Source: an uncultured virus (IMG/VR IMGVR_UViG_3300035544_000037)
Reading direction: 5' to 3' (one strand)
IMG/VR virus record: IMGVR_UViG_3300035544_000037
Span: 1-43,176 of that record
DNA length: 43,176 nt
This document shows positions 19,788 to 35,101 of this stretch, one piece after another. The position numbers and the translations under genes are program-made. How positions within the stretch are numbered: position 1 is the first letter of the stretch; the number at the start of each line of letters is the position of its first letter. The notes below the pieces were generated by a model. The model was not told the origin of the DNA and did not search any database. It was given only the letters and a program-made list of their open reading frames with translations.

Positions 19788-20981
19788 ATGGCAGATTATG
19801 GAATTACTGAAGATGGATTTAAAAGAAAAACTAGAGAAGAAATTGTTGAGGATATGAAATTAAGCCTTAAAAATAAATTCAGCAGTTTGAATATGACTGA
19901 TAAAAATCCATTAATTAAAATAGTAAAAGTTGTTTCTTACCCAATAGCTCTGTATTGGTTTGCCCTGGAGTCAATCTATAATAATAGATGGATAAGTACA
20001 GCTACTGGTCATACATTAGATGAGGTAGTTCAGTATTTAGGTATAACAAGGCAACCTGGTACAAAAGCAGTGACAGATGTAGTTTTTACTGGTGATGATT
20101 TAACATTTATTCCAGAAGAATTTTTAGTAGAAACAGTAGAAAAAGAACCAGTTCAATTTCAAACTGTTGAGAGTGGTTATATAGAGGATGGTAGTATAAC
20201 ATTACAAGTTCAAGCCTTGGAAGATGGTGAAAATGGAAATGTTGCTGCTGATACTATTACTGAGGTAGTTAATCCAATTTCTGGACTTGATTCAGTTAAT
20301 AACCCAAGTGCCTCTCAAGGTGGAAGTGAAAGAGAAACTGACCAAGAGTTGAGAGAAAGATATATTCAATCTTATGATAGAGCAGGAGGTTCAACTACTA
20401 ATTCAATCAGAGCTAATATTTTAGAAGAAACTGATACTACTGCTTGTATAGTTTTAGAAAATGTAACAATGGAAACAGATAGTAATGGATTACCTCCTAA
20501 ATCTTTTGAGAGCATTGTGTATGGGGGTGTAGATGAAGAAATAGCTCAAGCTATTTTTAATAAGAAACCTGCTGGGATTGAGTCATTTGGTAGTATTTCA
20601 GTATTGCTAGATGATGACTCAGGTAATGAGCAAACAGTTGGATTTTCAAGAGCTAGTGAAGTAGATATTTATATAGATTTAGATATATCTACTAACCCAG
20701 ATACTTTCCCATCTGATGGAGAAACTCAGATTAAAGATGAAATTATAGGATATATTGGTGGAGAATTAAGTGATGGAAGTTATCCAAGAGGATTAAGTAT
20801 AAGTGAAGATGTTATTTATAACAAAATTATTGATTTAGTATTTAATATTGCAGGTGTAGAAGATGTTAATTCACTTGCCATTGGAACTTCTTCAAGTCCT
20901 ACTGGAACTTCAAATATAACTGTAGCTTTCAGAGAGGTAGCTTTAACTGATAGTAGTTGGATAGTGATTACAAATGCTTAA
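19788..20981 (+). CDS. Baseplate J-like wedge protein
   Basis: ATGHTLD, G.NGNV, V.N....GG.E.ETD.ELRER, GLPPKS motifs. Confidence 0.92.
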   Translation: MADYGITEDGFKRKTREEIVEDMKLSLKNKFSSLNMTDKNPLIKIVKVVSYPIALYWFALESIYNNRWISTATGHTLDEVVQYLGITRQPGTKAVTDVVFTGDDLTFIPEEFLVETVEKEPVQFQTVESGYIEDGSITLQVQALEDGENGNVAADTITEVVNPISGLDSVNNPSASQGGSERETDQELRERYIQSYDRAGGSTTNSIRANILEETDTTACIVLENVTMETDSNGLPPKSFESIVYGGVDEEIAQAIFNKKPAGIESFGSISVLLDDDSGNEQTVGFSRASEVDIYIDLDISTNPDTFPSDGETQIKDEIIGYIGGELSDGSYPRGLSISEDVIYNKIIDLVFNIAGVEDVNSLAIGTSSSPTGTSNITVAFREVALTDSSWIVITNA

Positions 20982-21663
20982 ATTTGAAGATTTAATTAAT
21001 AAGTTTCCTCATATTTATATTAAAGAAAAGGTTAGTAATTTAGGTAAGTTAATCCAGACTATTTTAGAAGAATTACAATTAATTGAATCTACTAAAGATG
21101 AGGTAGAATTACAAGATGAATTAAGTAATGCTACTGGAATAACCTTAGATAAACATGGAGAATTGGTTGGACAAGAGCGTGGTCTATTTAGTGATGATAT
21201 TTATAGAATTTTAATTAAATCTAAAATCAGACAAAATTTATCTGGTGGAGATGTAAATTCCATTATTGAATATATAGCAACATTCTTTCAGATACCAAGA
21301 GAAAATATCCAAATTGATGAAAGTGAATGGGGTAGTTTTAGATTTTCAAATGTAAATGGAACTGTCCAAACAAGTGAATATGAGGGTTTTGGAACAGGTG
21401 TTTTAGCAGCAGATAATCCAGAACCAGCTTTTTATAGATTCAATATTACACCAGAAAGTTTAAATTCAATAGGCTTCCCTATTCAAGATTTAGTGAAAAT
21501 AGTAAAAGATTTAAGTGCAGCTGGAGTTAGAATTTCATTTTTTGTAAAAGGAACATTTGCTTTTTCAGCTACTGATGGAGTTGTTGAATATAGTGAAGAA
21601 GAAGGGTTTAATTATGGTACATTAGGTGCTTATTATAATCCAGATGAAGGATTTTTTAGTTAA
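20974..21663 (+). CDS. Baseplate wedge protein (DUF2612/P2 gpI-like)
   Basis: ATGITLD..GELVG..R, SDDIYR.LIKSKI, AAGV motifs. Confidence 0.8.
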   Translation: MLKFEDLINKFPHIYIKEKVSNLGKLIQTILEELQLIESTKDEVELQDELSNATGITLDKHGELVGQERGLFSDDIYRILIKSKIRQNLSGGDVNSIIEYIATFFQIPRENIQIDESEWGSFRFSNVNGTVQTSEYEGFGTGVLAADNPEPAFYRFNITPESLNSIGFPIQDLVKIVKDLSAAGVRISFFVKGTFAFSATDGVVEYSEEEGFNYGTLGAYYNPDEGFFS

Positions 21664-21683
21664 TATATAAGGAGGTTTTTATT

Positions 21684-23480
21684 TTGAAAAATATAAGTAA
21701 TAATTATCCAGAGTGGAATGCAACAGGTACAGAACCAGACCAGAGTAAAAAAGATGAAGGATGGCAACCAGGTGAAAAACCACCAGCTGATTGGTTTAAT
21801 TGGAAAGATAATAAAGATTATCAATCATTTCAAGATATAGATGCAGGAATAGCTGACAGAATTGCAGATGTTCTAACAGAAGGTGTCTTAACAGGTGGGG
21901 CAGTAACAGAAAACACAACAGCAAACTTAAGTATTTTAGTTGAACCATTAACAGGGTTCAACATTAATGGTGCTAGAATTAATTTAGATAGTCAACAAAC
22001 TGTTGATTTGAGCAATTACCTGCCTACTACTGTTGGAAATGAAAAATATGTAAGTGTTTACATTGATGTAATGGACTTAGAAACCAACACAGAAATTAAT
22101 ATAGTAGAAGGTATTTCAGCAACTGCTGGTAGTGCTACAAAACCTGCTATTGATAGTGCCCAAGGTGTATTATTAGCAGATATATTATTAACAGAAGGTC
22201 AAACTACAATATTAAATGATAATATTGAGGTAGCTAGAAAACAAAAAATACACTTAAACAATATAGCAGGCCAAATGGACTTCGTTAATGTTAATGATTA
22301 TGGGGCTGTTGGTGATGGCATTACTGATGATTCAAAAGCTATTCAGTATGCCATTGACAGTATTCCAGATGGAGATGACTTATACTTGTATTTCCCATAT
22401 GGCGAAAATGGACAATATTCTATTGAAAATAAAATAACAATTGCTAATAAAAATAATGTAGTTATTGAAGCACAAAATTCTGAAATTATAGCAAATAACT
22501 TTACAGGAATTAACCAAACTGCTATTAAAATTAATAATTGTAATAAAGTTGAATTAAGAAATGTTAATTTTAATTACAATAATACAAGTTTTTCACAAGT
22601 TAGAGCATTCACCATTTCATTTATTGAAAAAACATTAAAGGTTATTAATACAGATGTATATAATTTTGGGAATTCAAATAGGCAAAGGGGATTTTATTTA
22701 TCAAATATTAACAAAGACCAGAATTTATCAGGTTTCAACCACTACCCAGGAGCATTGTTTATAGGATGTAATTTTTACAATGAATGCTTAACCTCAATAG
22801 GTGAATTTGATTATAATAACAGCGAAAAGCACGGCGAGGGTGTATATTTTGGTGAAAATGCTGAATATTGGAAAGTTATAGGCTGTAGTTTTTTCTCATT
22901 AACTTGTGGAATATATATAGATGGCGGTGCGAATGGAACTATTACAAATAGTGAATTTGAATTAATTGATGGTAGAACTGATAAAACTTCTGGAATACCT
23001 GACAGAGCTTGTGTGTTTTCTGCATCTGGAGGGGGTAATAACGGTAAATTAATAGTAAGCAATTGCAAATTTACTCACAATTATGGTTATTCCATAATTT
23101 CTTATTACTCGTCTGGAACAAGGCCATTACAAATAATCAATAACCAATTTATTGCAAATGTGTTAGATCCAATTTTAATACAAGAAACTGACAGGACAAT
23201 GATTAATAGCAATTATTTTGATAGATGTTATAATTATAATAATATAATCAATTATCCTTACCCTACATCTCCAAGACAATTTATTGCAGTACAAGATGCT
23301 GATATGATGATGGTCAATGATAATTACTTTCTTGATAGCAATACTTATGCAATTAATTTAGAAGGAACATTAACAAATATTAAAATTTCTGATAATATCT
23401 TTTCAGTTATTAACACTGCAAACATTAATAATGTATCAAGTGCAACAAATGTAGTACAAAATGATAATGTTGATTTTTAG
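21684..23480 (+). CDS. Tail fibre/spike with right-handed beta-helix (putative polysaccharide depolymerase)
   Basis: N-terminal anchor W...G.EP...K...GW.PGEKPPADWFNW; VNVNDYGAVGDGITDDSKAIQ.AID and LYFP.G pectate-lyase-3-like start; Asn-rich I.NN.F repeats. Confidence 0.88.
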   Translation: MKNISNNYPEWNATGTEPDQSKKDEGWQPGEKPPADWFNWKDNKDYQSFQDIDAGIADRIADVLTEGVLTGGAVTENTTANLSILVEPLTGFNINGARINLDSQQTVDLSNYLPTTVGNEKYVSVYIDVMDLETNTEINIVEGISATAGSATKPAIDSAQGVLLADILLTEGQTTILNDNIEVARKQKIHLNNIAGQMDFVNVNDYGAVGDGITDDSKAIQYAIDSIPDGDDLYLYFPYGENGQYSIENKITIANKNNVVIEAQNSEIIANNFTGINQTAIKINNCNKVELRNVNFNYNNTSFSQVRAFTISFIEKTLKVINTDVYNFGNSNRQRGFYLSNINKDQNLSGFNHYPGALFIGCNFYNECLTSIGEFDYNNSEKHGEGVYFGENAEYWKVIGCSFFSLTCGIYIDGGANGTITNSEFELIDGRTDKTSGIPDRACVFSASGGGNNGKLIVSNCKFTHNYGYSIISYYSSGTRPLQIINNQFIANVLDPILIQETDRTMINSNYFDRCYNYNNIINYPYPTSPRQFIAVQDADMMMVNDNYFLDSNTYAINLEGTLTNIKISDNIFSVINTANINNVSSATNVVQNDNVDF

Positions 23481-23631
23481 GATGCTAATTGTAAAGGGGG
23501 CAATAAATAAATAATTATTTATGAGTTAATAATATTAATTTTACCGCCATTAAGAGAGATAAAATATACAAAAGAAAAATTTTGCCTTGTAGCGTGGTTG
23601 TTTGAGGTGATTTAATGGAAGGAATGATTTT

Positions 23632-24288
23632 ATGGAAGTAGATAATAAAATAATAGCTGCTATTACAAGTGTAGTAGTGGCTATTATTGGAATTTTTAGA
23701 ATAAATGTTAGTAATAGTGATGGCAACCAAGATTATGAAATAGCTAAACTAAAAAACCACCCTGTGCACCAAAGGTTAAAGAACTTTAAGAATTATATTG
23801 AGTTTGGAATTGAGGCAGATTTAAAAGGCAAAGAATTGCTTGTAAAGGATTTTCTTATTAACACATTTAGCTTTTATGAAGAAAAAATAAAAGAATTAGC
23901 TTATGAAGTAGATGATAATGATTTAACTCAAGATGAAATTCAGGCTCTGAATGAAGAATATTTTAATTGTGTAATAGAAGACATGATAACTTATTTTTAT
24001 GTAGATAATTATAATGATGAAGAAATAAAAGCATTAAAGATTTTAGCAGGAAAGTTCCAGAAATTTTATTATAAAAAATCTGAAAACTTTTTAGAAGAGA
24101 TGTGTGAGATAGCAAATTCAAATTATTATAAAAATCCTAAAATTATTCAAGCTATAATTTTTGATAAATATATAGGTTTATTTGCTACTATATTATCATG
24201 GTTTGATGAGGTTATTGATGTGCTTAATGGTGAGTTTGAAGGTTTAGAGTTTCAAGGGGAGGTAATTACTGATGAAGATTTTGATTGA
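23632..24288 (+). CDS. Single-TM protein with large soluble domain at head of lysis cassette (possible holin/regulator)
   Basis: N-terminal hydrophobic IIAAITSVVVAIIGIF; overlaps endolysin start. Confidence 0.55.
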   Translation: MEVDNKIIAAITSVVVAIIGIFRINVSNSDGNQDYEIAKLKNHPVHQRLKNFKNYIEFGIEADLKGKELLVKDFLINTFSFYEEKIKELAYEVDDNDLTQDEIQALNEEYFNCVIEDMITYFYVDNYNDEEIKALKILAGKFQKFYYKKSENFLEEMCEIANSNYYKNPKIIQAIIFDKYIGLFATILSWFDEVIDVLNGEFEGLEFQGEVITDEDFD

Positions 24289-24847
24289 TGCTGGCCATGG
24301 TGGCCCTGAAGGGCCAGGGGCAGTTGACCCTAAAGATAAAGAAATGGATGATGAAATTTATATAGATGAGATTTATTCAGAAGAAAGTGATATAGTTTTA
24401 GCTTTATCTAAAAAATTAATTAAACTTTTAGAAGATGATAATGAACTATTTATTACTAGAAAAGAAGACATTTATATCCCACTCCATGAGAGAAGTGAAT
24501 TGGCTAATGAAAATGAAGTAGATATATTTATTTCTCTACATGCTAATGCTGCTGAAAGTCAAAATGCTAAAGGAATAGAAACACTTTATTATCCTGGTAG
24601 CAAGGGTGGTAAGCTACTGGCTAATAGGGTACAAAATAGACTAATCAAGAATACTTATGCTACTAATAGGGGTATAAAGACCAGAAGAAATTTACATGTT
24701 CTTGAAGAAACTGATATGCCTGCTATTTTAGTAGAAGTAGGTTTTATTACTAACCTAAGAGAAGAAATTCTTTTAAATTGTGATGAATATTTAGATTTAC
24801 TAGCAAAATCAATTTATCAAGGAGTTGAGTATTATGGAAGAAGTTAA
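24272..24847 (+). CDS. Endolysin, N-acetylmuramoyl-L-alanine amidase (Amidase_3), catalytic domain only
   Basis: IDAGHGG, E, FISLHANA, PAILVEVGFITN motifs. Confidence 0.95.
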   Translation: MKILIDAGHGGPEGPGAVDPKDKEMDDEIYIDEIYSEESDIVLALSKKLIKLLEDDNELFITRKEDIYIPLHERSELANENEVDIFISLHANAAESQNAKGIETLYYPGSKGGKLLANRVQNRLIKNTYATNRGIKTRRNLHVLEETDMPAILVEVGFITNLREEILLNCDEYLDLLAKSIYQGVEYYGRS

Positions 24848-25037
24848 AGAATTGAAAAAAGATTGGTTATCATTTTTTCAAAAAGATTGGTTCCAAGCAG
24901 CTGTTTTCTTTATATTATTATTTACTGTTTTAACTTTTTTTGAAGTAGTAGATAATGCTTTGTATGGGAAAGTAGTTTTGACTATTATTGGTTCAGTATT
25001 TGTTGATGATGCACTTTCTTCTTTTGGGAAACAGTAG
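24834..25037 (+). CDS. Putative holin (two TM)
   Basis: 67 aa, two hydrophobic segments, directly after endolysin. Confidence 0.6.
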   Translation: MEEVKELKKDWLSFFQKDWFQAAVFFILLFTVLTFFEVVDNALYGKVVLTIIGSVFVDDALSSFGKQ

Positions 25038-25038
25038 T

Positions 25039-25527
25039 ATGTGGGAAAAAATAAAAGATAAATTAGGTTGGTTAGGTTTTGCTACTTTAGGCTTTTTAGC
25101 TAGTTTCCTATTTGGTAAGTATTCTTCTACTGCTGAACAAGGAAAGCAAGAAAAAGAGCTAAAAGACTTAATTAAAAAACAAGAAAAAGAGATTGGTAGA
25201 CTTGAGAAAAGAAAGTCTAAATTGACTGAAGAAATTAATAAACTAGATAAGCAATATCAAAAAGAACAGACTAAAATAGAAAAGTTAATGGAAGAAAATG
25301 AATTGTCTCAAAAGCAGATTGATAAGCAGATAAAAAAAATAGAAAATTTAAAAGGCAAGCAATTAGAATTAATTGAAGTAGAAAAAGAGGCAGAAAAAAC
25401 ACTTCAAACTTTAAGAAAACAAAATGATGAGTTATTAAAAGGAAGTGATAACAATCCTAAGGACAAGTTTAATTCTATTTCTGACCTTGATAATGCTATT
25501 AAGTCCAATGATGGTGATAGCAAATAA
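25039..25527 (+). CDS. Putative i-spanin-like protein
   Basis: N-terminal TM LGWLGFATLGFLASFLFG followed by long coiled coil; position after endolysin/holin. Confidence 0.6.
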   Translation: MWEKIKDKLGWLGFATLGFLASFLFGKYSSTAEQGKQEKELKDLIKKQEKEIGRLEKRKSKLTEEINKLDKQYQKEQTKIEKLMEENELSQKQIDKQIKKIENLKGKQLELIEVEKEAEKTLQTLRKQNDELLKGSDNNPKDKFNSISDLDNAIKSNDGDSK

Positions 25528-26002
25528 CTTTGAGTATTTTGAAAAGGTAGAAGGTGGCTATTTTCTACCAGAAGAAAATGAACAAGATTTATTGGATTTT
25601 ATCAATTCCTTAAACAATAAAATAGTAAACCTAGAAAATGCTATTAAAAAGGAAAGGGAAAAAACTGATGAAGTTATTTCTTCTAAAAATAAGAGGATAA
25701 ATAATTTGGAAGAGCAATTACAAGCAGCAAAAGAACTTAAAAAAGAGCTACAAAATATAATTGATAACAAAGACAAAATTTCTAATTTAAAAGATGAACA
25801 GATTGATATACTGGAACAAAAAATTGAGTTGTACAAGGAACAAAACTTAATTAATGAAAAAATTTTAGAACAAAAAAATAAAATCATATCTGGAAAAGAT
25901 GAGCTTATAGAGATTGAACAAGAGAAGTCTTTTAAAGGAAAGATTAATTGGGGTATATATGGTTTAGTTACAGGTTTAATAATAGGTTTGTATGCTAATT
26001 AA
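25445..26002 (+). CDS. Putative second spanin-like subunit (signal peptide, coiled coil, C-terminal hydrophobic anchor)
   Basis: Overlaps previous gene by 83 nt in another frame; signal-like N-terminus ending VIA; C-terminal WGIYGLVTGLIIGLYAN; no Cys. Confidence 0.55.
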   Translation: MITILRTSLILFLTLIMLLSPMMVIANNFEYFEKVEGGYFLPEENEQDLLDFINSLNNKIVNLENAIKKEREKTDEVISSKNKRINNLEEQLQAAKELKKELQNIIDNKDKISNLKDEQIDILEQKIELYKEQNLINEKILEQKNKIISGKDELIEIEQEKSFKGKINWGIYGLVTGLIIGLYAN

Positions 26003-26031
26003 TAGCAGTTAAGATGACTGCTATTTTTTTT
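26001..26031 (+). terminator. Rho-independent terminator ending the late operon
   Basis: AATAGCAGT/ACTGCTATT stem (26001-26009/26017-26025) running into a T tract. Confidence 0.85.
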
Positions 26032-26068
26032 ATCTTTAAAAATAATTAAAGTTTTTTCTAAAAATCAC

Positions 26069-26097
26069 TTTACTTTTTACTAGTTTTATATTATACT
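26069..26097 (+). promoter_or_regulatory. SigA-type early promoter
   Basis: TTTACT-17 bp-TATACT with AT-rich upstream region. Confidence 0.75.
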
Positions 26098-26128
26098 ATA
26101 TTTAGTCTTGAAGAAAGGGGGTGAGGAA

Positions 26129-26293
26129 ATGTTTTGGCAAGGGATGGCTTTAGGCATAGCAATTGGATATGCAATTAAAAAGTTTTTAGATGGTGATTAT
26201 GATTATCAAGCAGAAATATATGATAAGGCATATACTGATGGTTATAAAGTTGGTTATAATGATGGGGAAGATGGCATACCAAGGAGGAAGTGA
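26129..26293 (+). CDS. Small protein with N-terminal TM and Y.DGY..G repeats
   Basis: GGGGGTGA RBS; first gene after promoter. Confidence 0.65.
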   Translation: MFWQGMALGIAIGYAIKKFLDGDYDYQAEIYDKAYTDGYKVGYNDGEDGIPRRK

Positions 26294-26296
26294 AAA

Positions 26297-26464
26297 GTGC
26301 TTATCAAAGTTACTAACTTAGAAAATGGTGCTGTTAAATATACTAATGATTTTTACTTTTTTGAAGAACAAGGCATATCAACTATCAAAGATAATGGTGA
26401 AACTATTAATATGTTTGGACAGAAACTTAAAATAGAGTTTATTAAGGAGGCAGATATGGGATGA
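26297..26464 (+). CDS. 55-aa hypothetical protein, not in ORF track
   Basis: GTG after AAGGAGG; MLIKVTNLENGAVKYTNDFYFFEEQG...; ATGA overlap with next gene. Confidence 0.65.
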   Translation: MLIKVTNLENGAVKYTNDFYFFEEQGISTIKDNGETINMFGQKLKIEFIKEADMG

Positions 26465-26856
26465 GATTATGGCATGAGGACTTACTTGATAAGCTACCAG
26501 CTAATCAATTTAATGGGCAGCACAGAGAAATATGTGCCCTTAGAGGTAAGGGTTGGGAAAAGAACCATTCTACTGTTGATTATATTTTTAATTACCCTAT
26601 TGAACATTTAATAGCTTATCATTTTAAATATTTAAGTTTAAGAAGGGAAAGAGGATATAATTATAATGAGAAGTGGGAAAGAGCTACTCACAGAGGTAAA
26701 AACCTTGAGCCTTTTATAAATGTTAATTATCAATTAATTGATACTATAATTGTTACTGGTAGAAAGTGCTATCCAGAACACAATGAGAAATATCTAAAAG
26801 AATGTATTGAAAATTTAAAAGAGAAAGGGTGTGTTTGTAGATATTATGAAGACTAA
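26461..26856 (+). CDS. TIGR02328-like protein (pyrimidine-dimer glycosylase/DenV fold)
   Basis: MRLWH..L...LP..Q..GQHRE.CALRG.GW...HSTVDY.F, YPEHN..YL.EC.ENL..KG. Confidence 0.88.
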   Translation: MRLWHEDLLDKLPANQFNGQHREICALRGKGWEKNHSTVDYIFNYPIEHLIAYHFKYLSLRRERGYNYNEKWERATHRGKNLEPFINVNYQLIDTIIVTGRKCYPEHNEKYLKECIENLKEKGCVCRYYED

Positions 26857-27070
26857 AATTTTAATCCTTACTTTAATAATAGTGCTTTTATCTACCAACT
26901 TAATTTTAGCAGAAGGAATGGGTTTGAGCAGAGATAAGAAAATACAAAGGCAAAAGAATGTAGCTTTAGAATACATGATAGAAAAGGAAAGAGAGGAAAC
27001 TAAAAGGCGAATTAATAGATTTTGGTTTGGGATAGGAACTCTAATTTTATTTAATATTTTTCTTAAATAG
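26846..27070 (+). CDS. Small exported/membrane protein
   Basis: Signal-peptide-like N-terminus, charged helix, C-terminal TM. Confidence 0.6.
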   Translation: MKTKILILTLIIVLLSTNLILAEGMGLSRDKKIQRQKNVALEYMIEKEREETKRRINRFWFGIGTLILFNIFLK

Positions 27071-27072
27071 CC

Positions 27073-27101
27073 TTTACTTTTTACTAAAAATATAGTATAA
27101 T
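27073..27101 (+). promoter_or_regulatory. SigA-type promoter for helicase operon
   Basis: TTTACT-17 bp-TATAAT; shares CTTTACTTTTTACTA with the promoter at 26069. Confidence 0.8.
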
Positions 27102-27126
27102 TATATTGTACTGAGAGAAAAAGGAG

Positions 27127-28908
27127 GTGGTATTTATTGCTAAATGGAAAGGAAAATCTAAGATTGGAATGGATGCTAGAAAGTTGAAAGATGGAACTAT
27201 TAAGAAAAAGGGTGTAGCAATTAAATCACCTTATGCTCATAAAGAACTTTGTAAAAAAGTTAAAAACAAATTTGGCGGTAAGTGGAAGGCTAAAAAGAAA
27301 ATTTGGTCTTATCCATTAGAGATTGAAGTGGTAGATTATGCTACTGAAATTTGGGATAAGAAAGGCTTAACATTAGAAAAATCAGATTTATTAAAAGAAT
27401 GGTATGAGAAAAGAAAGATAGAAAGAGAAAATCTGCTAGTTAATAAAGATAGAAAAGAAGTCAAGCCAGAAGAACTTGATACTGAATTAGCTGATACCCT
27501 TTATGATTTTCAGAGAGTAGGTGTAAACTTTTTAACTGAAACTAAAGGTGCTATTTTAGGGGATGATATGGGATTGGGTAAGACCTTCCAATCATTAGCT
27601 ACTGTAGATAATATTAATGCTAGCTCTACTTTAATAGTTTGTCCTGCCTCACTTAAGTATAACTGGGCAGAAGAAATAGAGAAATGGTTGCCTAATAAAA
27701 CCTATACAATATTAGATGGTAGCAAAGAGAAAAGGATTGAGGCACTAGAAAATGATGTAGATTTTTACATTACTAATTATGCCAGCCTTAGAGAGAAAAG
27801 CAGAGCTAAGATTAATGGTAATTGGACTAAGGTTGATAATGAGTTGTTCAAAGCTATAAAAAATAAAAACTTTGAAGTGGCTATTTACGATGAAGCTCAC
27901 AAAATGAAGAACAGGAAGAGCCAACAAACCAAAGCCTTATACAAGATTACTAATGGTATTAAGAGGAACTACCTTCTAACTGGTACTCCAATTATGAATA
28001 CCCCAGAGGACTTATGGTCATTACTTCATATAATAGATAGGAAGAAGTTCAGTAGCTTTTGGAGATTTGTTCATAGATACTGTGAAGTTTGGGATAATGG
28101 ATTTGGGAAGGAAATTGGTAGTGCTAAAAACCCTAAAGAGTTTAGAGAGATGCTAAAACCTTATATGCTAAGAAGGTTGAAAGAAGAAGTAATTGAAGAT
28201 ATGCCTGAATTAACTAAGCAGAAAAGCTGGGTAGAACTAGAAGGTAAACAAAGTAAAATTTATCACCAAATGGAAGAAGATATGGTAGCAGAACTTTCTG
28301 AACAAGAAGAAATAAAAGCACCTATAATTATTTCTAAGATTATGAGGTTAAAACAAATTGCTGTTAGTGAACAACTATTAGCAGAAAAACCTTCTATTAA
28401 AAAGTTTAAGAAGTCTGCTAAAATTAAGGTTTTAAATGAGATTATAGATGACTCTGGTGACCAAAAGATAGTAGTTTTCACCCAATATCAATCAGCAGCT
28501 AAGTTAGTGGCTAAGATGTTAGATAAGGAAGGTATAGGCTATGGAATGATACATGGTGGAGTTAAGAATGAAGAAAGGCAGAAAGAAGTCAATAAATTCC
28601 AGGAAAATGATAATTGTAAGGTATTTGTAGCTACTATTAAAGCTGGTGGCCTGGGATTGACTTTAACTGCTGGTAGTATAGCTGTATTTTTAGATAAAGA
28701 CTGGACTAATGCTAATAATACTCAAGCTGTTGACCGATTACATCGATTGGGACAAGAAAAAAATGTGACTGTCATTGAGTTATTAGCTAAGGATAGCATA
28801 GAAGAATATATAGAAGAATTATTAGCAGAAAAACAAGAAACCTTTGACTCATTAATAGAAGGTAAGATAACTGGAAAAGAAATTCTACTAAATTTAAGGG
28901 GTGAGTAA
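27127..28908 (+). CDS. SNF2-family (SF2) helicase/ATPase
   Basis: DDMGLGKT, VCPASLKYNW..EI, DEAH, LTGTPIMN, MLRR.K, GLTLT, QAVDRLHRLGQ. Confidence 0.95.
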   Translation: MVFIAKWKGKSKIGMDARKLKDGTIKKKGVAIKSPYAHKELCKKVKNKFGGKWKAKKKIWSYPLEIEVVDYATEIWDKKGLTLEKSDLLKEWYEKRKIERENLLVNKDRKEVKPEELDTELADTLYDFQRVGVNFLTETKGAILGDDMGLGKTFQSLATVDNINASSTLIVCPASLKYNWAEEIEKWLPNKTYTILDGSKEKRIEALENDVDFYITNYASLREKSRAKINGNWTKVDNELFKAIKNKNFEVAIYDEAHKMKNRKSQQTKALYKITNGIKRNYLLTGTPIMNTPEDLWSLLHIIDRKKFSSFWRFVHRYCEVWDNGFGKEIGSAKNPKEFREMLKPYMLRRLKEEVIEDMPELTKQKSWVELEGKQSKIYHQMEEDMVAELSEQEEIKAPIIISKIMRLKQIAVSEQLLAEKPSIKKFKKSAKIKVLNEIIDDSGDQKIVVFTQYQSAAKLVAKMLDKEGIGYGMIHGGVKNEERQKEVNKFQENDNCKVFVATIKAGGLGLTLTAGSIAVFLDKDWTNANNTQAVDRLHRLGQEKNVTVIELLAKDSIEEYIEELLAEKQETFDSLIEGKITGKEILLNLRGE

Positions 28909-29371
28909 AGTGAGTAAAATTAAATATGTAAAATATGATAATATTGATCAAATTAATTTTGCTAATTTAGAAGATAAAATGATTGATGATGTTTGTGTAA
29001 TCTTAGGTGTAATAAATGACCAGTACTTTTTTAGGCTTACAAAAGTTAGTCATGATTTTAATGAAGGCAAATTTGCTTTTGTATCAATAAATAATAGTTC
29101 TTGTTACTATCATGGTTGGGGAACTCTTAAATCACAAATCAATACTTTTATGGAACAACTTCCTGGAGATAATAGTGAAATATTAGTTTTTAGTGATTTA
29201 CAAAATTATTTAGAATATCTATTAGAAGGTGTAAGGCAAAACCCTAATAAAAAGGCTTATAAAGGAATGTTAAATTTAATTGAAATGATTACTAATCAAA
29301 AAGACCTTGATGATAGCCTTAAATTGTCATCAATCTCTGAATTAATGAGGGGGTTTCACCTTAATGAGTGA
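28901..29371 (+). CDS. Hypothetical protein
   Basis: Coupled ORF with phage-like codon use. Confidence 0.65.
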   Translation: MSKVSKIKYVKYDNIDQINFANLEDKMIDDVCVILGVINDQYFFRLTKVSHDFNEGKFAFVSINNSSCYYHGWGTLKSQINTFMEQLPGDNSEILVFSDLQNYLEYLLEGVRQNPNKKAYKGMLNLIEMITNQKDLDDSLKLSSISELMRGFHLNE

Positions 29372-29588
29372 TAATATAACTACCATTTCAATAAAGCAAG
29401 ATATTATAACTACTGAAGATGGAGGTATAAAATTGACTCTAGACCCAATTTTAGATGAAAAACTGGGGGAAGATTGGAATGAAAAATTTAAAGTAGTTGA
29501 CTTGAATTTTAATATGATAGATGATAAAACTGATAAAGTTCATTATACAGTAGATTTAAAGGAGGTGAATCATAGTGAAAGCAATTAA
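29364..29588 (+). CDS. Hypothetical protein
   Basis: GAGGGGG RBS; coupled ORF. Confidence 0.65.
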   Translation: MSDNITTISIKQDIITTEDGGIKLTLDPILDEKLGEDWNEKFKVVDLNFNMIDDKTDKVHYTVDLKEVNHSESN

Positions 29589-29757
29589 AGATAAAGGGCT
29601 TGAAGAATTGGAATCATTCCAGAATAGAGTGTACAGACAAAAAGGCTTAGGTAGAATAAGCCATCAAGATTTTCTCAAACTTTCTGAACAAGTAGAAACT
29701 CTTATTGATAGTGTAAAAGAGATTGAGGAAAATGATAATAAACCATATGAGAAGTAG
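29575..29757 (+). CDS. Hypothetical protein
   Basis: AAGGAGGTGA RBS, GTG start. Confidence 0.7.
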   Translation: MKAIKDKGLEELESFQNRVYRQKGLGRISHQDFLKLSEQVETLIDSVKEIEENDNKPYEK

Positions 29758-29784
29758 GCTTTAGAAAGGAGGTGAGCTAATTTA

Positions 29785-29940
29785 ATGGGTTTTGATAGAG
29801 AAGATACTGTTGAAGGCAAAATAGATAGAGCTTTAAAGGCTGCTAAAGAAATTAGAGGTGATAGCAGAAGTCCTGGCAATATTAATGTAGTAATTAACAA
29901 TTTAGAAAGAGCTAAATTTTTATTGAAATTGAGGGGTTAG
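29785..29940 (+). CDS. 51-aa hypothetical protein, not in ORF track
   Basis: AAGGAGGTGA RBS; MGFDREDTVEGKIDRALKAAKEIRG...LLKLRG. Confidence 0.7.
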   Translation: MGFDREDTVEGKIDRALKAAKEIRGDSRSPGNINVVINNLERAKFLLKLRG

Positions 29941-30164
29941 GGGTGAGATAATTAATGGAAATTTTCAAAAAAGAAACAAAGGGATATAAATTTAGTGAAT
30001 TAGGTGAAAAAGCTCAAGAAACTGCTATGATTATGCACAGTTCATTATTAGGATTTGAAAGTGATATAGGTTATCCTGCTGAGCCAAGTAAAAAAGGCAT
30101 TGAATATTTGGATGATTTAGGAATTTATTTTACTGAAGATGGGGGTGAGATAATTAATGGAAAT
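29940..30164 (+). repeat. 23-bp perfect direct repeat GGGGTGAGATAATTAATGGAAAT at 29940-29962 and 30142-30164
   Basis: Read directly; each copy contains RBS plus start codon. Confidence 0.9.
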
Positions 30165-30173
30165 ATCTTATAG
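29955..30173 (+). CDS. Hypothetical protein between the direct repeats
   Basis: GGGGTGA RBS; YKFSEL.EKAQE.A and Y.FTEDG motifs. Confidence 0.7.
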   Translation: MEIFKKETKGYKFSELGEKAQETAMIMHSSLLGFESDIGYPAEPSKKGIEYLDDLGIYFTEDGGEIINGNIL

Positions 30174-31161
30174 TAGAATATCAACTATAAAAAGGTGCTT
30201 TAGAAAGTATCATTACAGATATGAAAAAGGGTTAAGAAGGATAGAACAAGCATCTCCACCAAGAATGGGAAGTATGGGTCATAAAGCCTTAGAAGAAAAG
30301 TGGAGAGGAAATGACTGGAGACAAGCTATCATAGACTACTGGAGAGAAGAAATGAATGGTATTCCAGAGCAGTTTATTGATGAAGAAAGTAAGGAAGAAA
30401 TTGAGCTTGTTACTAAGGTAGTAGAAAGATATTTTAATAAGTATGATTATTATAGAAGTCCAGATGAGAAAGATTTAATTGAGCCAGAGCTTAGATTTTC
30501 AGTAGAAATTCCTGGAACTGACAATAAATTAATGGGATATATGGATAAAGTTATAGAAGTTCCAAATGAAGGAATTTGGCTAATTGACCATAAGTTTACT
30601 ACTCAATCACCTAAAACTAAAACTGAACATTTAGAATTAAATGAACAGATTGATTATTATACTTGGGCTATGAGTCAGATGTTCCCTAACAAAACAATTA
30701 TGGGTGCTATCTGGAATGTTATTAGATTAGACTTACCAACAGTTCCTCAGCCTATTAAGTCTGGGAAAAGATTATCTAAGGCTAAGATGACTACTGATTA
30801 TGAAACTTATTATCAAGCTATTTTAGATAATGGTTTTGACCCAGAAGATTATGAAAAATATTTAACAAGGTTAAAACATGAAGATGATAAGTTTTTTAAA
30901 AGAGAATGGATAGATAGAGATGCTTATGAACTTAAAAACATTGAGAAAGAATTGGTAGCTATGTCTAATTTGATAGAACACATTGATAAGAATATCAGAA
31001 GTAGAAGTATGGGTCAATGTTCTTGGGACTGCCCTTATCAACAATTATGTTTAGTAGATAAAAAGGGTGGGGATAGTAAGGCTGTTATAGATGAATACTT
31101 TACTACCAGAGAACAAAGAGAACAGCAGGCAAGTGAAGACAATGGGAATAATCCTTTTTAG
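30157..31161 (+). CDS. PD-(D/E)XK exonuclease (Cas4/AddB/RecB-like)
   Basis: SYS.I....C, G...H..LE, E, GYMD, IDHK, Q...Y, C-terminal CSWDCPYQQLC. Confidence 0.88.
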   Translation: MEISYSRISTIKRCFRKYHYRYEKGLRRIEQASPPRMGSMGHKALEEKWRGNDWRQAIIDYWREEMNGIPEQFIDEESKEEIELVTKVVERYFNKYDYYRSPDEKDLIEPELRFSVEIPGTDNKLMGYMDKVIEVPNEGIWLIDHKFTTQSPKTKTEHLELNEQIDYYTWAMSQMFPNKTIMGAIWNVIRLDLPTVPQPIKSGKRLSKAKMTTDYETYYQAILDNGFDPEDYEKYLTRLKHEDDKFFKREWIDRDAYELKNIEKELVAMSNLIEHIDKNIRSRSMGQCSWDCPYQQLCLVDKKGGDSKAVIDEYFTTREQREQQASEDNGNNPF

Positions 31162-31245
31162 CTAAGGCTCATATAGGCTAAAGCTGGTTAGTTCCTTGGT
31201 TAAGAGAAAACTTTTTTGTTTATGAGCCTTTGTTTAGGAGGTAAT

Positions 31246-31389
31246 GTGTGTAAAACTTACAGAATTTGTATGGAATGTGGGTTTGTCTTTGAAGAAGAAT
31301 ACTTGGATAGTAAATTAGACCATAAGTGTCATAGATGTGGTAACAAGAGATTTAAGACTAGAGAAAATAATTTGGATTATTTAAAATAA
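31246..31389 (+). CDS. 47-aa zinc-ribbon protein, not in ORF track
   Basis: AGGAGG RBS; MCKTYRICMECGFVF...KCHRCGNKRF. Confidence 0.7.
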   Translation: MCKTYRICMECGFVFEEEYLDSKLDHKCHRCGNKRFKTRENNLDYLK

Positions 31390-31398
31390 TTTCAAATT

Positions 31399-31443
31399 AA
31401 AAGAAGGACTTTCATGATTGATATAGAATATATTATATAGAGG
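31399..31443 (+). promoter_or_regulatory. Repeated intergenic motif, SigH-like promoter (copy 1)
   Basis: AGGA(31405)-17 bp-GAAT(31426); aligns without gaps to 40414-40458. Confidence 0.6.
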
Positions 31444-31453
31444 TGAGAATAAA

Positions 31454-31921
31454 ATGGAAAATAGAAATTGGCACTTGAAAGGAAAAGAATTCAAAGACCA
31501 TTATTCATTCGAAATAATCAATTCAGGCATTAAGATTGTATGTGAAAAAACAGAGTATGAAACTGTTAAGAAAAAGGCTGAGTTGATAGCAGCTGCTCCA
31601 AAAATGGAAATATTATTAGCTGAAACAATACCTTATTTAAAATATAAGACTAGGAAACAAAGATTAAAACAGAGAAGAAAATTAATAGAATTTTTAAATG
31701 AAAATTTAGGGAAGGATAGCAAAAATGAATTCTTTGACCTTTTTAAAATTACTTGTAAAAAATGTTCAACTGAATTTTTAGATATAGAAACTGGAGAATT
31801 TATTTCTGTTGGATTGGCACAATTTGAATGCCCTTCTTGCAATACAATTAATTATGGTGATGAAGAAGTTGAATTTATTTGTCACACAGATTTGAAAGAA
31901 GGTGTTAATAATGGAAACTAA
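31454..31921 (+). CDS. Hypothetical protein with A.LIAAAP motif and C-terminal zinc ribbon
   Basis: KAELIAAAPKM (common phage motif); CKKC...CPSC. Confidence 0.7.
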   Translation: MENRNWHLKGKEFKDHYSFEIINSGIKIVCEKTEYETVKKKAELIAAAPKMEILLAETIPYLKYKTRKQRLKQRRKLIEFLNENLGKDSKNEFFDLFKITCKKCSTEFLDIETGEFISVGLAQFECPSCNTINYGDEEVEFICHTDLKEGVNNGN

Positions 31922-32096
31922 TATATTGATAGTTGTTTGTCCTGAGTGCAACTCAGATTTGATACAAAAGGATTTTATGATTGGGCAAGATATAAAAATA
32001 TTTACTGGGTTTAAATGCTTAGATTGCAATCATGAATTTAATAAAAAAGAAGCAGTTTTTGAAGAAGTATCAGATGGTGTGATTTGCCATGAGTAA
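31911..32096 (+). CDS. Zinc-ribbon protein
   Basis: CPEC...CLDC; GAAGGTG RBS. Confidence 0.7.
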   Translation: METNILIVVCPECNSDLIQKDFMIGQDIKIFTGFKCLDCNHEFNKKEAVFEEVSDGVICHE

Positions 32097-32286
32097 TTAT
32101 ATTGAGGGAAATAAAAATACTGTATTTGACCATGGCAATTTTAAAAAAGAAAAATATGAGTTAATGGAAGAAACTTTAGATGATATAGCTGCTAATGCTT
32201 ATGGGTTGTTTGATGAAAAAGCTATGAATTATGTTCAAGAAACCTTAGATGAGATACAGAACTTAAAGGAGGGTGAAGATGAATAG
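32089..32286 (+). CDS. Hypothetical protein
   Basis: Coupled ORF. Confidence 0.6.
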   Translation: MSNYIEGNKNTVFDHGNFKKEKYELMEETLDDIAANAYGLFDEKAMNYVQETLDEIQNLKEGEDE

Positions 32287-32425
32287 AGCAGAAAGAAGAA
32301 GAAAACAAAGGGAAAAGGCAAAAGAACTTTTGTATGATGAATTTAACAAAGAAAATTATCCAAAGCTATCAAGGCAAGAAAGAAAGACTTTGGCTAATGA
32401 TAAGGCAAAGGAGGTGATTAACTAA
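32279..32425 (+). CDS. 48-aa basic protein, not in ORF track
   Basis: GAGGGTGA RBS; MNRAERRRKQREKAKELLYDEF...; TAATG coupling to next gene. Confidence 0.7.
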   Translation: MNRAERRRKQREKAKELLYDEFNKENYPKLSRQERKTLANDKAKEVIN

Positions 32426-33144
32426 TGGATGTAGAAAAAGAAATGCATGATATGGAGAAAGAATTTAAGGATATGAAACCTACTTTTGCTATCTATGGTG
32501 ATGTTGGTGTAGGCAAGACTACTTTTACTTCTTATGCTCCCAACCCACTTTTAATTGATGCTGAAGGTGGTAGAGCAAGTATTGCTAAAACTCCTAATAG
32601 TCCAAAAATACTTGAACCAGAAAATCTTTCAGACTTGGGTGACATTTATATATGGCTTAAAGCTAATCAAGATAAATTTGATTCAGTTATTATTGATACT
32701 TTAAGTGAAGTAGAGAAATGGGCTGTTGAGGAAAGTTTAAGAAATGCTGTTAAGAAAGACCCAACCAAAAGCAAGGACTTAGCTACCATGATTAATTATA
32801 AAGAAGGTAGCACAAGAACTTCCAGAATAGCTAGAATGTTTAGAGGGTTGGATATGTATGTGTTCTTCTTACTACATGAAAGAAGTGATAAGGATGAGAA
32901 CACAGGAGCAGTCAAACTTGGGCCAAAATTAATGCCTTCTGTTATGTCTGACCTTAATGGATTTACTGACTTTATCTTTCATGTAGATATTGATAATGAT
33001 GGTAATAGAGTTATCAGAACTTCTCCAAGTAGAAAAGTTAGAGCTAAACACAGGATTGGAAAATTACCTGATGTTATTAATTTAGGAAATGACTTTGAAG
33101 ACTTTAGAGTAGATACAGTCTTGGAAATGATAGAAAACTCTTAA
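32425..33144 (+). CDS. Sak4-like/AAA_24 P-loop ATPase (recombination/annealing)
   Basis: IYGDVGVGKTT, LIDAEGG, VIIDTLS, HE, AKHR motifs; between exonuclease and SSB. Confidence 0.85.
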   Translation: MDVEKEMHDMEKEFKDMKPTFAIYGDVGVGKTTFTSYAPNPLLIDAEGGRASIAKTPNSPKILEPENLSDLGDIYIWLKANQDKFDSVIIDTLSEVEKWAVEESLRNAVKKDPTKSKDLATMINYKEGSTRTSRIARMFRGLDMYVFFLLHERSDKDENTGAVKLGPKLMPSVMSDLNGFTDFIFHVDIDNDGNRVIRTSPSRKVRAKHRIGKLPDVINLGNDFEDFRVDTVLEMIENS

Positions 33145-33219
33145 TAGTAATCATTCCTATTAAGCAAGTCTTAGTAAAAAGAACTAATACACTATATAAT
33201 ATTATATTTATTAAAAAAT

Positions 33220-35100: not shown

Positions 35101-35101
35101 A

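Follow-up and report, generated by a model that had tools for sequence, protein, structure and literature searches.

A lipobox-free pair of overlapping genes as candidate spanin equivalent in a phage probably infecting Halanaerobiia

The window, i.e. the complete 43,176-nt stretch of uncultured virus DNA that was analysed (IMG/VR record IMGVR_UViG_3300035544_000037), contains a late/lysis operon, and all features described here lie on its + strand. Directly upstream of the endolysin gene, a position that is conserved, lies a gene for a 218-aa protein with an N-terminal transmembrane (TM) helix (23632..24288). It matches phrog_18926 (E 2.4e-7; PHROG category unknown function), but no family in Pfam or NCBIfam. 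Look-alikes of 215 and 211 aa, identified by eye, occupy the same slot in genomes G018 and G101, and window positions 24121-24257 share 76% nucleotide identity with contig G018:C1. The endolysin (24272..24847) is a 191-aa N-acetylmuramoyl-L-alanine amidase of the Amidase_3 type (PF01520, E 6e-43; phrog_435 endolysin, E 4.5e-44), and its gene is 65-66% identical at the nucleotide level to amidase genes of the Halanaerobiia genomes G038 and G074. This single-domain enzyme has no signal peptide. Since PF01520 is its only domain match and fills residues 3-186 of 191, there is no room for a cell-wall-binding domain, as an earlier note on this DNA had stated.

The next gene (24834..25037), whose ATG is preceded by AAGGAG, encodes 67 amino acids with two hydrophobic stretches. 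We regard its product as a putative holin, judged only by size, position and hydrophobicity; searches of Pfam, PHROGs and NCBIfam assigned it to no family, and small ORFs of 67-76 aa take the same slot in G018, G101 and G083. ORF1 (25039..25527, 162 aa) starts with an ATG one base past the holin stop codon, which ends at 25037. ORF2 (25445..26002, 185 aa) starts with GTG in the +1 frame relative to ORF1. The 83 nt shared by both genes (25445..25527) encode the ORF1 tail in frame 0 and the ORF2 signal peptide in the +1 frame. The operon ends with ORF1 and ORF2, and an intrinsic-terminator-like hairpin (26001..26033; 11-pair stem, then a T run) stands directly behind. Rfam models gave no match anywhere in the window. 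The coordinates bear out the earlier description of an overlapped pair after amidase and putative holin, and the same overlapping arrangement returns in G018, G101 and G083, where the two genes share 71, 104 and 77 nt, respectively.

Hydrophobicity and heptad analysis predict for ORF1 the N-in/C-out topology of an i-spanin. A positively charged N-terminus with Lys residues precedes one TM segment (about residues 9-26, with a single hydrophobic window at 9-25), a Lys/Glu-rich heptad coil and an acidic C-terminal tail. The heptad periodicity is strong, with 24 windows compared to a mean of 0.76 in shuffled sequences, a value that none of 300 shuffles reached. An N-terminal TM segment, N-in/C-out orientation and a periplasmic coiled coil are the features by which i-spanins are recognised, and all three are predicted here. 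The ORF1 profile matched 11 genomes, and three of these matches were real, namely G018, G101 and G083, where the homologue was paired with ORF2 each time. Seven of the eight weak matches were inspected and rejected, as none of them lies in a lysis cassette; five of the seven are small membrane proteins among host genes (by eye, SecD/F-like, GGDEF-like and chemotaxis genes). All relatives of ORF1 came from genome searches only: as a single query in a word-indexed protein search, it retrieved no homologue, not even itself. N-terminal-TM coiled-coil proteins of 79 and 90 aa also adjoin holins in inspected monoderm prophages, and the ORF1-type architecture alone is therefore not specific for diderm hosts.

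ORF2 begins with a signal peptide (about residues 1-26) whose cleavage motif reads V-I-A. It continues with a conserved aromatic/Gly motif that forms a beta hairpin (about 28-46) and with a helix some 125 residues long, and ends in a hydrophobic, Gly-rich segment (168-183) plus a tail of one residue. The AlphaFold2 model (mean pLDDT 83) contains an N-terminal helix (2-28), then a beta hairpin (33-40), and from 43 to 184 a single helix that takes in the C-terminal segment as well (pLDDT 67-74). The heptad signal is modest, as 17 of 300 shuffles reach it. The 16 residues of the hydrophobic core (codons at 25946..25993) include four Gly and have a mean Kyte-Doolittle value of 1.57, and the tail behind them carries no positive charge. 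Throughout the family, K/R residues precede this core and almost never follow it. The core may be too weak to serve as a stop-transfer anchor.

Neither ORF1 nor ORF2 matched a holin family (Pfam, PHROGs, NCBIfam) or any Pfam family at threshold, XhlA included, and NCBIfam returned sub-threshold coiled-coil noise only. NCBIfam CTERM/LPXTG sorting-domain models gave no match at E <= 0.1 for ORF2 or its relatives P0008, P0012 and P0015. No sequence link to spanin families was found: PF03245 was not matched in Pfam, and the matches of ORF1 to Rz-like PHROGs were weak (E 0.0045-0.028) and no better than those to tape-measure coiled coils. ESM Atlas look-alikes (scores 0.90-0.91) fall into clusters without names and were uninformative. 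Complex prediction lends weak support to binding of ORF1 to ORF2, with a score of 0.36 compared to 0.00 for the best of three controls; since the controls are apparently not coiled coils, this difference may reflect helix pairing only. Of 80 solved complexes, 58 reach the mark applied to such predictions, as do two of 110 mismatched pairs, and passing scores of 0.60 or below comprise seven of the 80 solved complexes together with both passing mismatches. The runs share at least 15% of contacts, with partner pLDDT of at least 79, and no interface is reported.

The family of ORF2 is rare and carries no annotation. Its members are characterised by a cleavable signal peptide, the beta-hairpin motif, a single long helix and a hydrophobic, Gly-rich C-terminus of 16-17 residues. 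Signal peptide, N-terminal motif and hydrophobic end are all retained in distant homologues, while the coil varies between 115 and 213 aa. All full-length members have a small residue at position -1 of the signal peptide. A strict lipobox occurs in none of the 22 family members, and 17 of the 22 contain no Cys whatever. For the pair in the window, the earlier note had claimed that it includes no lipoprotein and that neither protein contains a cysteine; both statements hold, with zero Cys in ORF1 and zero in ORF2. Among 1.84 billion representative proteins, only 18 reached E <= 1e-3 in the ORF2 search. The ORF2 profile was then compared with 931 genomes from three groups, a sampling outside which Negativicutes, Limnochordia and most Clostridia-type classes fall by name. 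It matched four of 102 Halanaerobiia genomes (E 4.4e-7 to 1.4e-63; ORFs of 138-192 aa) and, at E <= 1e-5, none of 401 Bacilli genomes, in which the best match (1.8e-5, 26 bits) was like all others a coiled-coil piece within an ORF of 194-575 aa. None was found in the phylum of G001, a second Firmicute phylum represented by 401 genomes, in the 27 genomes of the class of G001, or in 50,697 GenBank phage records. The family is thus restricted to a diderm class among the genomes searched.

A pattern scan with the close ORF2 alignment recovered nothing from GTDB genomes or JGI metagenomes, and in IMG/VR only the same phage. Metagenome contigs contain a variant that is ~90% identical across the whole stretch compared; record 9 of X4 has 125 differences and two gaps over 1251 nt. 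Within the part that belongs to ORF1 only, 20 of 32 listed differences in the variant contigs fall on third codon positions, with 146 further differences outside that count. Apart from two possible sources, the metagenomes with the larger shares of matching sequence (0.27-0.40) are labelled oil field (X4, X5) and aquifer (X3). RNA sequencing runs were absent among the matches listed.

The genes preceding the pair differ between genomes. The endolysin ahead of the window-type pair is an Amidase_3 enzyme in G101 and G083 and a Peptidase_M15_3 enzyme in G018. An analogous lipobox-free pair occupies the same cassette position in other Halanaerobiia prophages, where it follows GH108 or Amidase_2 endolysins; this second type is represented by G002, which stems from an H. 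saccharolyticum isolate, and by G038, G074, G022 and G012. Because both types of pair together follow four types of endolysin, the module travels with the lysis genes rather than with one particular enzyme. All endolysins of these cassettes are small single-module enzymes. Three Bacilli prophages with related portal and baseplate genes encode endolysins of 307-461 aa, with no signal-peptide/coil/anchor gene behind them. Canonical Rz (PF03245) was found above cut-off in none of the 102 Halanaerobiia genomes, in a search that detected the E. coli control.

The second component of the G002 type is a coiled-coil protein whose C-terminus has, as a sequence pattern alone, the appearance of two Phe-terminal strands resembling an outer-membrane protein (OMP); its AlphaFold2 model is poor (pLDDT 59, below 50 at the C-terminus). 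In G022 and G012, a single uninterrupted frame immediately behind the amidase gene contains both halves of the analogous pair. Profile comparison (hhalign) of the window-type and G002-type second components gave 69% probability, spanning only the signal peptide plus about 25 residues, and that of the first components 76%, in the TM region only. ORF1 of G083 and the continuous frame of G022 align by BLASTP with 38% identity over 68 aa (E 2e-7), in the TM and Lys-rich sequence. G002 and G083 additionally contain ORFs for a coil plus C-terminal TM segment upstream of the endolysin, without a Pfam match. The same architecture, next to holin and amidase and without a signal peptide, is known from XhlA-like proteins of Bacillus prophages. 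ORF2 resembles XhlA-like proteins in its coil and hydrophobic C-terminus, but differs from them by its signal peptide; in G002 and G083, XhlA-like architecture resides in these separate ORFs, which are additional to the pair.

The arrangement resembles that of lambda Rz/Rz1 in several respects. Both are adjacent genes at the end of the cassette, the second of which begins inside the first in the +1 frame; ORF1 is a predicted type II inner-membrane protein with a periplasmic coil, the probable host has an outer membrane, and the Halanaerobiia arrangements vary as those of spanins do (overlapped, barely overlapped or in one continuous frame). In contrast to Rz1, ORF2 is not a small proline-rich lipoprotein but as long as ORF1, helical, and equipped with a signal peptidase I motif and a C-terminal hydrophobic helix. 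In addition, ORF1 and ORF2 fall outside the Rz families by sequence, provide no Cys for intermolecular disulfides, and ORF2 lacks the lipobox of o-spanins. Class I viral fusion proteins offer an analogy, since they too possess a TM anchor along with long coiled coils and a hydrophobic, Gly-rich peptide that could enter a second membrane. Here, the parts are divided over two phage proteins, and the analogy concerns this layout rather than hairpin refolding or fusion. With the unimolecular spanin T1 gp11, as described in the relevant part of Kongari et al. (2018; PMC6139136), ORF2 shares an N-terminal export signal, a hydrophobic C-terminus that may act as anchor, and the position as last cassette gene. 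It differs from gp11 in that its signal ends in Ala (signal peptidase I type) and it has neither lipobox nor outer-membrane lipid anchor, in that its periplasmic part is one long helix (43-184) instead of extended beta structure, and in that it always occurs with ORF1. Finally, gp28 of phage phiKT, according to the phiKT preprint, also represents a non-lipoprotein route of outer-membrane disruption within a lysis cassette, but is a single small cationic peptide, unlike the two exported or membrane-anchored coiled-coil proteins described here.

Based on position, topology and phylogenetic distribution, we propose that ORF1 and ORF2 constitute a spanin-equivalent outer-membrane disruption module of a phage infecting Halanaerobiia, and put the probability of this reading at roughly 0.55. 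The host of this tailed phage would belong to the Halanaerobiia, Firmicutes with an LPS outer membrane. Holin and amidase would handle inner membrane and wall, and ORF1 and ORF2 would then remove the outer membrane, as spanins do for phages of Proteobacteria. ORF1, oriented N-in/C-out in the inner membrane with its coiled coil in the periplasm, would act like an i-spanin. ORF2 would be exported by Sec and cut by signal peptidase I without becoming lipidated, leaving a rod of ~19 nm with the beta-hairpin tip at the N-terminus and the Gly-rich, marginally hydrophobic helix at the C-terminus. Two topologies are conceivable. Either the C-terminal peptide of ORF2 would enter the outer membrane in the manner of a fusion peptide while its N-terminus holds the ORF1 tail, or ORF2 would be a type I inner-membrane protein with the layout of a lipid-less unimolecular spanin, and the hairpin tip would contact the outer membrane. 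The two proteins would bind each other and bridge or fuse the two membranes, and the topologies differ in the end of ORF2 that would touch the outer membrane. The coil range of 115-213 aa within the ORF2 family counts against a module of this kind, because such variation sits uneasily with a periplasm of constant width.

An alpha-helical C-terminal anchor remains in the inner membrane by default after Sec export, and both proteins could therefore share one membrane. This bears on an earlier suggestion that the outer membrane is broken by means of a non-lipidated, C-terminally anchored partner: the Gly-rich hydrophobic C-terminus and the missing lipobox agree with it, but an outer-membrane location of this end does not follow, as type I inner-membrane topology also fits. 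It also leads to the strongest rival explanation, namely that the pair is a lysis accessory acting at the cytoplasmic membrane only, e.g. as holin regulator, antiholin, timing device or enhancer of membrane lesions. The default topology of both TM segments, the small TM-plus-coil proteins beside holins in monoderm prophages, the coil-plus-C-terminal-TM ORFs upstream of the endolysins in G002 and G083 and the lack of spanin homology in Pfam, PHROGs and NCBIfam would all be accounted for. But an accessory of this type would hardly explain why, of the three groups with their 931 genomes, only the diderm class has the second component, or why the G002-type second component ends in an OMP-like strand pattern. 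Moreover, the holin slot is already taken by a small 2-TM protein (in G022 a PF05105 holin), and the pair sits past the holin as the last genes, which is the position of spanins. We therefore consider this explanation unlikely, although it deserves to be kept in mind.

The two proteins could also be unrelated to lysis, e.g. superinfection exclusion proteins or another moron riding at the operon end, where accessory genes often gather; the lack of any family annotation in Pfam, PHROGs and NCBIfam would be in line with such a role. However, the single base between the putative holin stop and the ORF1 start indicates tight coupling, the slot is kept behind four endolysin types in divergent cassettes, and the analogous halves in G022 and G012 follow the amidase directly in one frame. 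These observations make a function outside lysis very unlikely.

The host lineage is best placed in the Halanaerobiia, a diderm class of Firmicutes, as judged from gene and genome comparisons. The best named match of the portal protein is from Halanaerobium saccharolyticum (48-49%), and at the DNA level (E <= 1e-6) positions 20001-40000 of the window match 11 of 102 Halanaerobiia genomes, compared to none of 27 in the class of G001. Among the four genomes counted as pair carriers, Omp85/BamA was found in G018, G101 and G083 and LpxC in G101, G040 and G083. The contig G101:C8 is bacterial, since it also carries a two-component system. The diderm Firmicute host postulated earlier thus gains support from portal and DNA matches and from BamA and LpxC in genomes with the pair. 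One loose end is L008, a 13-kb contig and the closest relative of the structural genes (73% for the portal, about 75% nucleotide identity over 10.7 kb), which was binned in a MAG from a class with Omp85 in none of 27 genomes. Because L008 is only 13 kb long and carries phage genes throughout, we regard its binning as weak evidence.

The alternative of a monoderm Firmicute host, in which the pair would have a different function at the envelope (e.g. S-layer or wall-associated release), could draw on L008 and on relatives of portal and amidase in Listeria phage B054, Lactobacillus phage LBR48 and a Moorella phage. Against it, the MAG with L008 contains no further part of the phage, DNA-level matches of the window's lysis and replication half are confined to Halanaerobiia, and the pair was found on bacterial contigs whose genomes encode BamA and LpxC. 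A monoderm host is accordingly very unlikely. Host prediction by CRISPR spacers, another route named in the earlier note, was unproductive: the 102 Halanaerobiia genomes contained no spacer-grade DNA match, and short matches of 90-97% identity fall in conserved genes or in AT-rich promoter/RBS stretches. The rationale given there for the missing lipobox, a host lacking the Lol pathway, fails for the Halanaerobiales. LolA_like PF17131 was present in all five Halanaerobiia genomes tested, while PF03548 and PF16584 were found in none of the five; since Halanaerobiia have LolA-like genes, "no Lol" does not explain the absence of a lipobox. In the part of Antunes et al. (2016; PMC5007114) that concerns this pathway, LolA homologues, LolCDE and Lnt are reported for Halanaerobiales, and absence for Negativicutes only.

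We assign the start of ORF2 to the GTG at 25445 because its homologues show full signal peptides. The Shine-Dalgarno-like AGGAA inside ORF1 (25440..25444) abuts this GTG with almost no spacing; homologous pairs have an internal GGAGG-like site ahead of ORF2. That ORF2 is a mere chance overlap, or starts at a downstream Met without a signal peptide, is a negligible concern: the poor spacing and the choice of Met22 or a nearby codon by gene callers in five of five close homologues (P0001, for one, is called with 164 aa) would fit, but P0007, P0008, P0009, G083 and G101 have full signal peptides with positive N-termini, the truncated calls would fit the overlap-length limit of gene callers, and conservation within the family extends from the hairpin motif through the C-terminal core.

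If the spanin-equivalent reading is extended to the G002-type pairs, lipid-independent spanin analogues may have evolved at least twice in phages of diderm Firmicutes, an idea that we put forward as tentative and rather doubtful. In the window type, the Gly-rich, fusion-peptide-like helix of the rod would escape stop-transfer and enter the outer membrane from the periplasm, the hairpin tip would dock on the tail of the Rz-like partner, and after loss of the wall the complex would fuse the membranes. In the G002 type, the OMP-like hairpin would presumably be inserted by BAM. Spanins are defined by their lipoprotein partner, and spanin finders look for a lipobox. In the portion of Kongari et al. 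(2018; PMC6139136) that deals with their criteria, the authors state that these ignore other anchors, and that a type I inner-membrane protein could serve as i-spanin and an OMP as o-spanin; a double origin, if true, would provide the first example of the "other anchors" merely hypothesised there. About 15% of Gram-negative phages are scored "spanin-less" according to the phiKT preprint, which we attribute to the lipobox requirement of the finders.

No published account of outer-membrane passage was found for phages of Halanaerobium (full text), nor for those of Negativicutes and Veillonella (title/abstract, among the matches listed). The envelope biology of diderm Firmicutes is central to the debate on the evolution from diderm to monoderm bacteria. 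Being conserved and restricted to one lineage, the pair described here is a candidate for a route through the outer membrane that needs no lipid. If confirmed, it would widen the definition of spanins and provide an annotation pattern in which the gene for a type II coil protein overlaps with a second one downstream that encodes signal peptide, coil and C-terminal anchor. It would also represent a small two-protein system for membrane fusion or disruption that works without lipid modification, and a marker dividing phages of diderm from those of monoderm Firmicutes.

The lysis cassette in the window is a series of plus-strand genes ending in two overlapping reading frames. A 191-aa amidase (24272-24847) is followed by a 67-aa ORF with two hydrophobic stretches (24834-25037), by ORF1 (162 aa; 25039-25527), whose ATG lies one base past the preceding stop, and by ORF2 (185 aa; 25445-26002), which is read in the +1 frame and shares 83 nt with ORF1. 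Directly behind ORF2 stand a terminator-like hairpin and its T run (26001-26025). Neither ORF1 nor ORF2 encodes a single Cys. ORF1 has one hydrophobic window, at its N-terminus, and a strong heptad pattern that none of 300 shuffles equalled. The predicted fold of ORF2 (mean pLDDT 83) consists of a signal-peptide helix, a short β hairpin (residues 33-40) and one helix from residue 43 to 184. Gene order, absence of Cys, heptads and predicted fold show that the earlier note described this layout accurately, including the 83-nt overlap and the coil, signal peptide and C-terminal hydrophobic end. It was also right that the amidase lacks a cell-wall-binding domain, since Amidase_3 fills residues 3-186 and no further domain is present. 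Directly upstream of this endolysin lies the gene for a 218-aa N-terminal-TM protein (23632-24288, plus strand; phrog_18926, of unknown function there). Look-alike ORFs occupy the same place in two Halanaerobiia genomes, G018 (215 aa) and G101 (211 aa), and the protein may be a further member of the cassette. The region of the lysis pair (24800-26050) also exists as variants of about 90% identity in metagenome sequencing runs X3-X5, labelled oil field and aquifer; one 7.3-kb variant contig covers this entire region with 125 differences.

The weak point of ORF2 is its start, where AGGAA abuts the GTG, and gene callers place the start at a later Met (164 aa in the database protein P0001). A word-indexed protein search with ORF2 returned five proteins of 45-100% identity, each with a clipped N-terminus. 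In the public gene calls (window 25445-25510; P0001-P0006), five of five close homologues begin inside or past the signal peptide. This clipping is likely due to a true start that overlaps the upstream gene beyond the limit of the gene callers, which would keep the signal peptide out of the annotation. Among 1.84 billion representatives, a profile search retrieved 18 proteins at E ≤ 1e-3, of which seven reached ≤ 1e-30. Full-length members have textbook Sec signal peptides, rich in Lys/Arg at the start, hydrophobic in the core and with a small residue at -1, followed by a conserved aromatic/Gly motif corresponding to the modelled hairpin and by a coil of variable length. The hydrophobic core at their C-terminus spans 13-23 residues (16-17 in long members), contains 2-4 Gly, is immediately preceded by 1-5 Lys/Arg and is followed by a tail of one to four residues. 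A strict lipobox is absent from all 22 members, of which 17 lack Cys altogether. Neither ORF scored above threshold with any Pfam, PHROG or NCBIfam model; the PHROG matches of ORF1 to Rz-like spanins (E 0.0045-0.028) were no better than those to tape-measure coils. ORF1 was not retrieved from a 5.8-billion-protein collection, even as itself; ORF2 of the same contig was present.

The window (43,176 bases; GC content 28-35%) is an entire IMG/VR virus record with an estimated completeness of about 52% (CheckV), and all substantial ORFs lie on the plus strand. Family matches for the portal (PF06381), major capsid (PF09950), tape measure (PF10145), baseplate J and β-helix tail fibre identify a phage of the contractile-tail type. 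The structural genes are followed by replication genes for an SNF2 helicase, a PD-(D/E)XK nuclease, AAA_24, a primase-helicase and DNA polymerase III α with a PHP domain. The product of 36799-39672 is a 957-aa fusion of CHC2 zinc finger, Toprim and MCM-like P-loop, and the polymerase gene (41885-43174) runs off the contig end. A 79-aa ORF (26831-27070, plus strand) overlapping the end of the pyrimidine-dimer glycosylase gene is a miniature of the layout of ORF2: its hydrophobic N-terminal stretch is signal-like, and a charged helix leads from there to a hydrophobic C-terminus.

We scanned one genome per GTDB species with a portal profile, which gave 47 loci. The best was L008 (JBKHBO010000052.1), a 13.3-kb contig of the 'Clostridia bacterium' MAG G001, at 73%; a Halanaerobium saccharolyticum prophage (G002) came second at 48%, and the remaining loci were Bacilli (44% at most) and a single Leptospira MAG (29%). 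Four of 102 Halanaerobiia genomes contained ORFs of 138-192 aa that matched the ORF2 profile (G018, 1.4e-63; G101, 7.6e-14; G040, 1.3e-12; G083, 4.4e-7); six weaker matches in this class were rejected as coiled-coil noise. There was no match in 401 genomes of the phylum of G001, in 27 of its class or among 50,697 GenBank phage records. The best match in 401 Bacilli reached 1.8e-5, and all matches there were pieces of ORFs of 194-575 aa. Omp85/BamA is present in G018, G101 and G083, and LpxC in G101, G040 and G083. The contig G101:C8 also encodes a response regulator and a histidine kinase and is therefore bacterial.

In three of these genomes the pair sits in a comparable cassette, and real matches to the ORF1 profile were confined to them. 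In G018 the look-alike of the 218-aa TM protein comes first, then an endolysin of the Peptidase_M15_3 type, a 2-TM protein of 73 aa, a homologue of ORF1 (39% identity) and an overlapping homologue of ORF2, followed by a homologue of the pyrimidine-dimer glycosylase of the window. G101 has Amidase_3, two small TM proteins and shorter forms of ORF1 (124 aa) and ORF2 (135 aa); in G083, Amidase_3 is followed by a single small TM protein, an ORF1 that is again shorter (117 aa) and a 169-aa ORF2. The two genes overlap by 71, 104 and 77 nt in G018, G101 and G083, respectively, and in each case ORF1 contains a GGAGG-like site. Canonical Rz (PF03245) was above cut-off in none of the 102 Halanaerobiia genomes. 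Just upstream of the endolysin in G002 (L092:10775-11152) and G083 (L070:3671-3997) are ORFs with a coil and a C-terminal TM segment, no signal peptide and no Pfam match, whose resemblance to Bacillus XhlA-type accessory proteins is limited to their layout.

The host is best placed in a diderm Firmicute class, as proposed in the earlier note, and gene-family distribution, DNA matches and portal ranking favour Halanaerobiia. At the DNA level, E ≤ 1e-6 matches to window 20001-40000 occurred in 11 of the 102 Halanaerobiia genomes, compared to none of 27 in the class of G001. Independent metagenome runs with matching sequence are labelled oil field and aquifer, habitats that fit Halanaerobium ecology. 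Against this host, no spacer-grade match to the window was found in the same 102 genomes, and the placement of L008 conflicts with it: it outranks the H. saccharolyticum prophage and is about 75% identical to the window over 10.7 kb (2.2-14 kb), and its MAG belongs to a class with Omp85 in none of 27 genomes. But L008 is a short, all-phage contig and G001 holds no other part of the phage. Therefore, its placement is probably a binning artefact.

As monoderm controls we inspected three prophages, from Salibacterium, Paenibacillus and Levilactobacillus genomes, whose portal and baseplate genes are related; their endolysins measure 307, 461 and 350 aa. None carries a signal-peptide/coil/anchor gene downstream of the endolysin, and in two of the three a small coil protein with an N-terminal TM segment is encoded close to the holin. 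Thus, the second component tracks the diderm lineage, but the ORF1 architecture by itself does not.

The G002 prophage has no member of the ORF2 family. Its cassette encodes, in this order, an endolysin with GH108/PG_binding_3, a 2-TM protein of 85 aa, the product of a 162-aa ORF, a 121-aa protein with a TM segment and Lys/Glu coil, and a 146-aa protein with signal peptide and coil but no Cys, whose gene overlaps the preceding one by 14 nt. This second, analogous lipobox-free pair (L092:12349-13141 on G002:C6; also L095, L094, L096 and L097) closes the lysis cassettes of Halanaerobium prophages, and relatives of the 146-aa protein occur in five of 102 genomes (G002, G038, G074, G022, G012). 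In G022 and G012 both halves form one continuous frame directly downstream of a PF05105 holin and Amidase_2. All five proteins end in a conserved two-strand-like segment with hydrophobic positions 1, 3, 5, 7 and 9 from the terminal Phe, an alternation which we take to be the pattern of outer-membrane-protein C-termini; the predicted fold is too poor to inform this segment. The window amidase is closest to those of G038 and G074 (65-66% nucleotide identity), both with G002-type cassettes; the two kinds of pair, which may or may not be homologous, are thus interchanged within one cassette framework.

The earlier note linked the missing lipobox to the lack of a canonical Lol pathway in diderm Firmicutes. 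This holds only in part: Antunes et al. (2016; PMC5007114) report that Negativicutes are without LolA and LolB, but that Halanaerobiales have LolA homologues, LolCDE and Lnt. LolA_like (PF17131) was found in five of five Halanaerobiia genomes, and PF03548 and PF16584 in none of the five. Therefore, a missing LolA-like gene does not explain the missing lipobox.

The spanin position, a lineage in which the outer membrane has to be disrupted and the i-spanin-like ORF1 make the pair a candidate for a spanin-equivalent lysis role, to which we assign a probability of roughly 0.55. ORF1 would be the i-spanin-like first component. The C-terminal core of ORF2 is short, Gly-rich and moderately hydrophobic, with positive charges before the core and not after it, the reverse of the charge order of a classic stop-transfer anchor. 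The C-terminus might escape arrest in Sec and insert into the outer membrane afterwards; alternatively, it could anchor ORF2 in the inner membrane as a type I protein, and the hairpin tip, at a distance of about 19 nm, would meet the outer membrane. Complex prediction lends weak support to an ORF1-ORF2 interaction, with a score of 0.36 (best control 0.00), agreement between runs in at least 15% of contacts and partner pLDDT of at least 79; 58 of 80 solved complexes and two of 110 mismatched pairs attain the mark for this score, and seven of the 80 and both passing mismatches lie at 0.60 or under. Kongari et al. (2018; PMC6139136) expressly allow that a type I protein could serve as the i-spanin and an OMP as the o-spanin. 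We found no literature report of either in Firmicute phages, and the terms Halanaerob-, Negativicutes, diderm and lipoprotein are all absent from a 2025 lytic-protein survey. Taken together, the module is a real, conserved and lineage-restricted lysis-cassette pair with a spanin-like layout without lipid anchoring, whose function and membrane placement are predicted.
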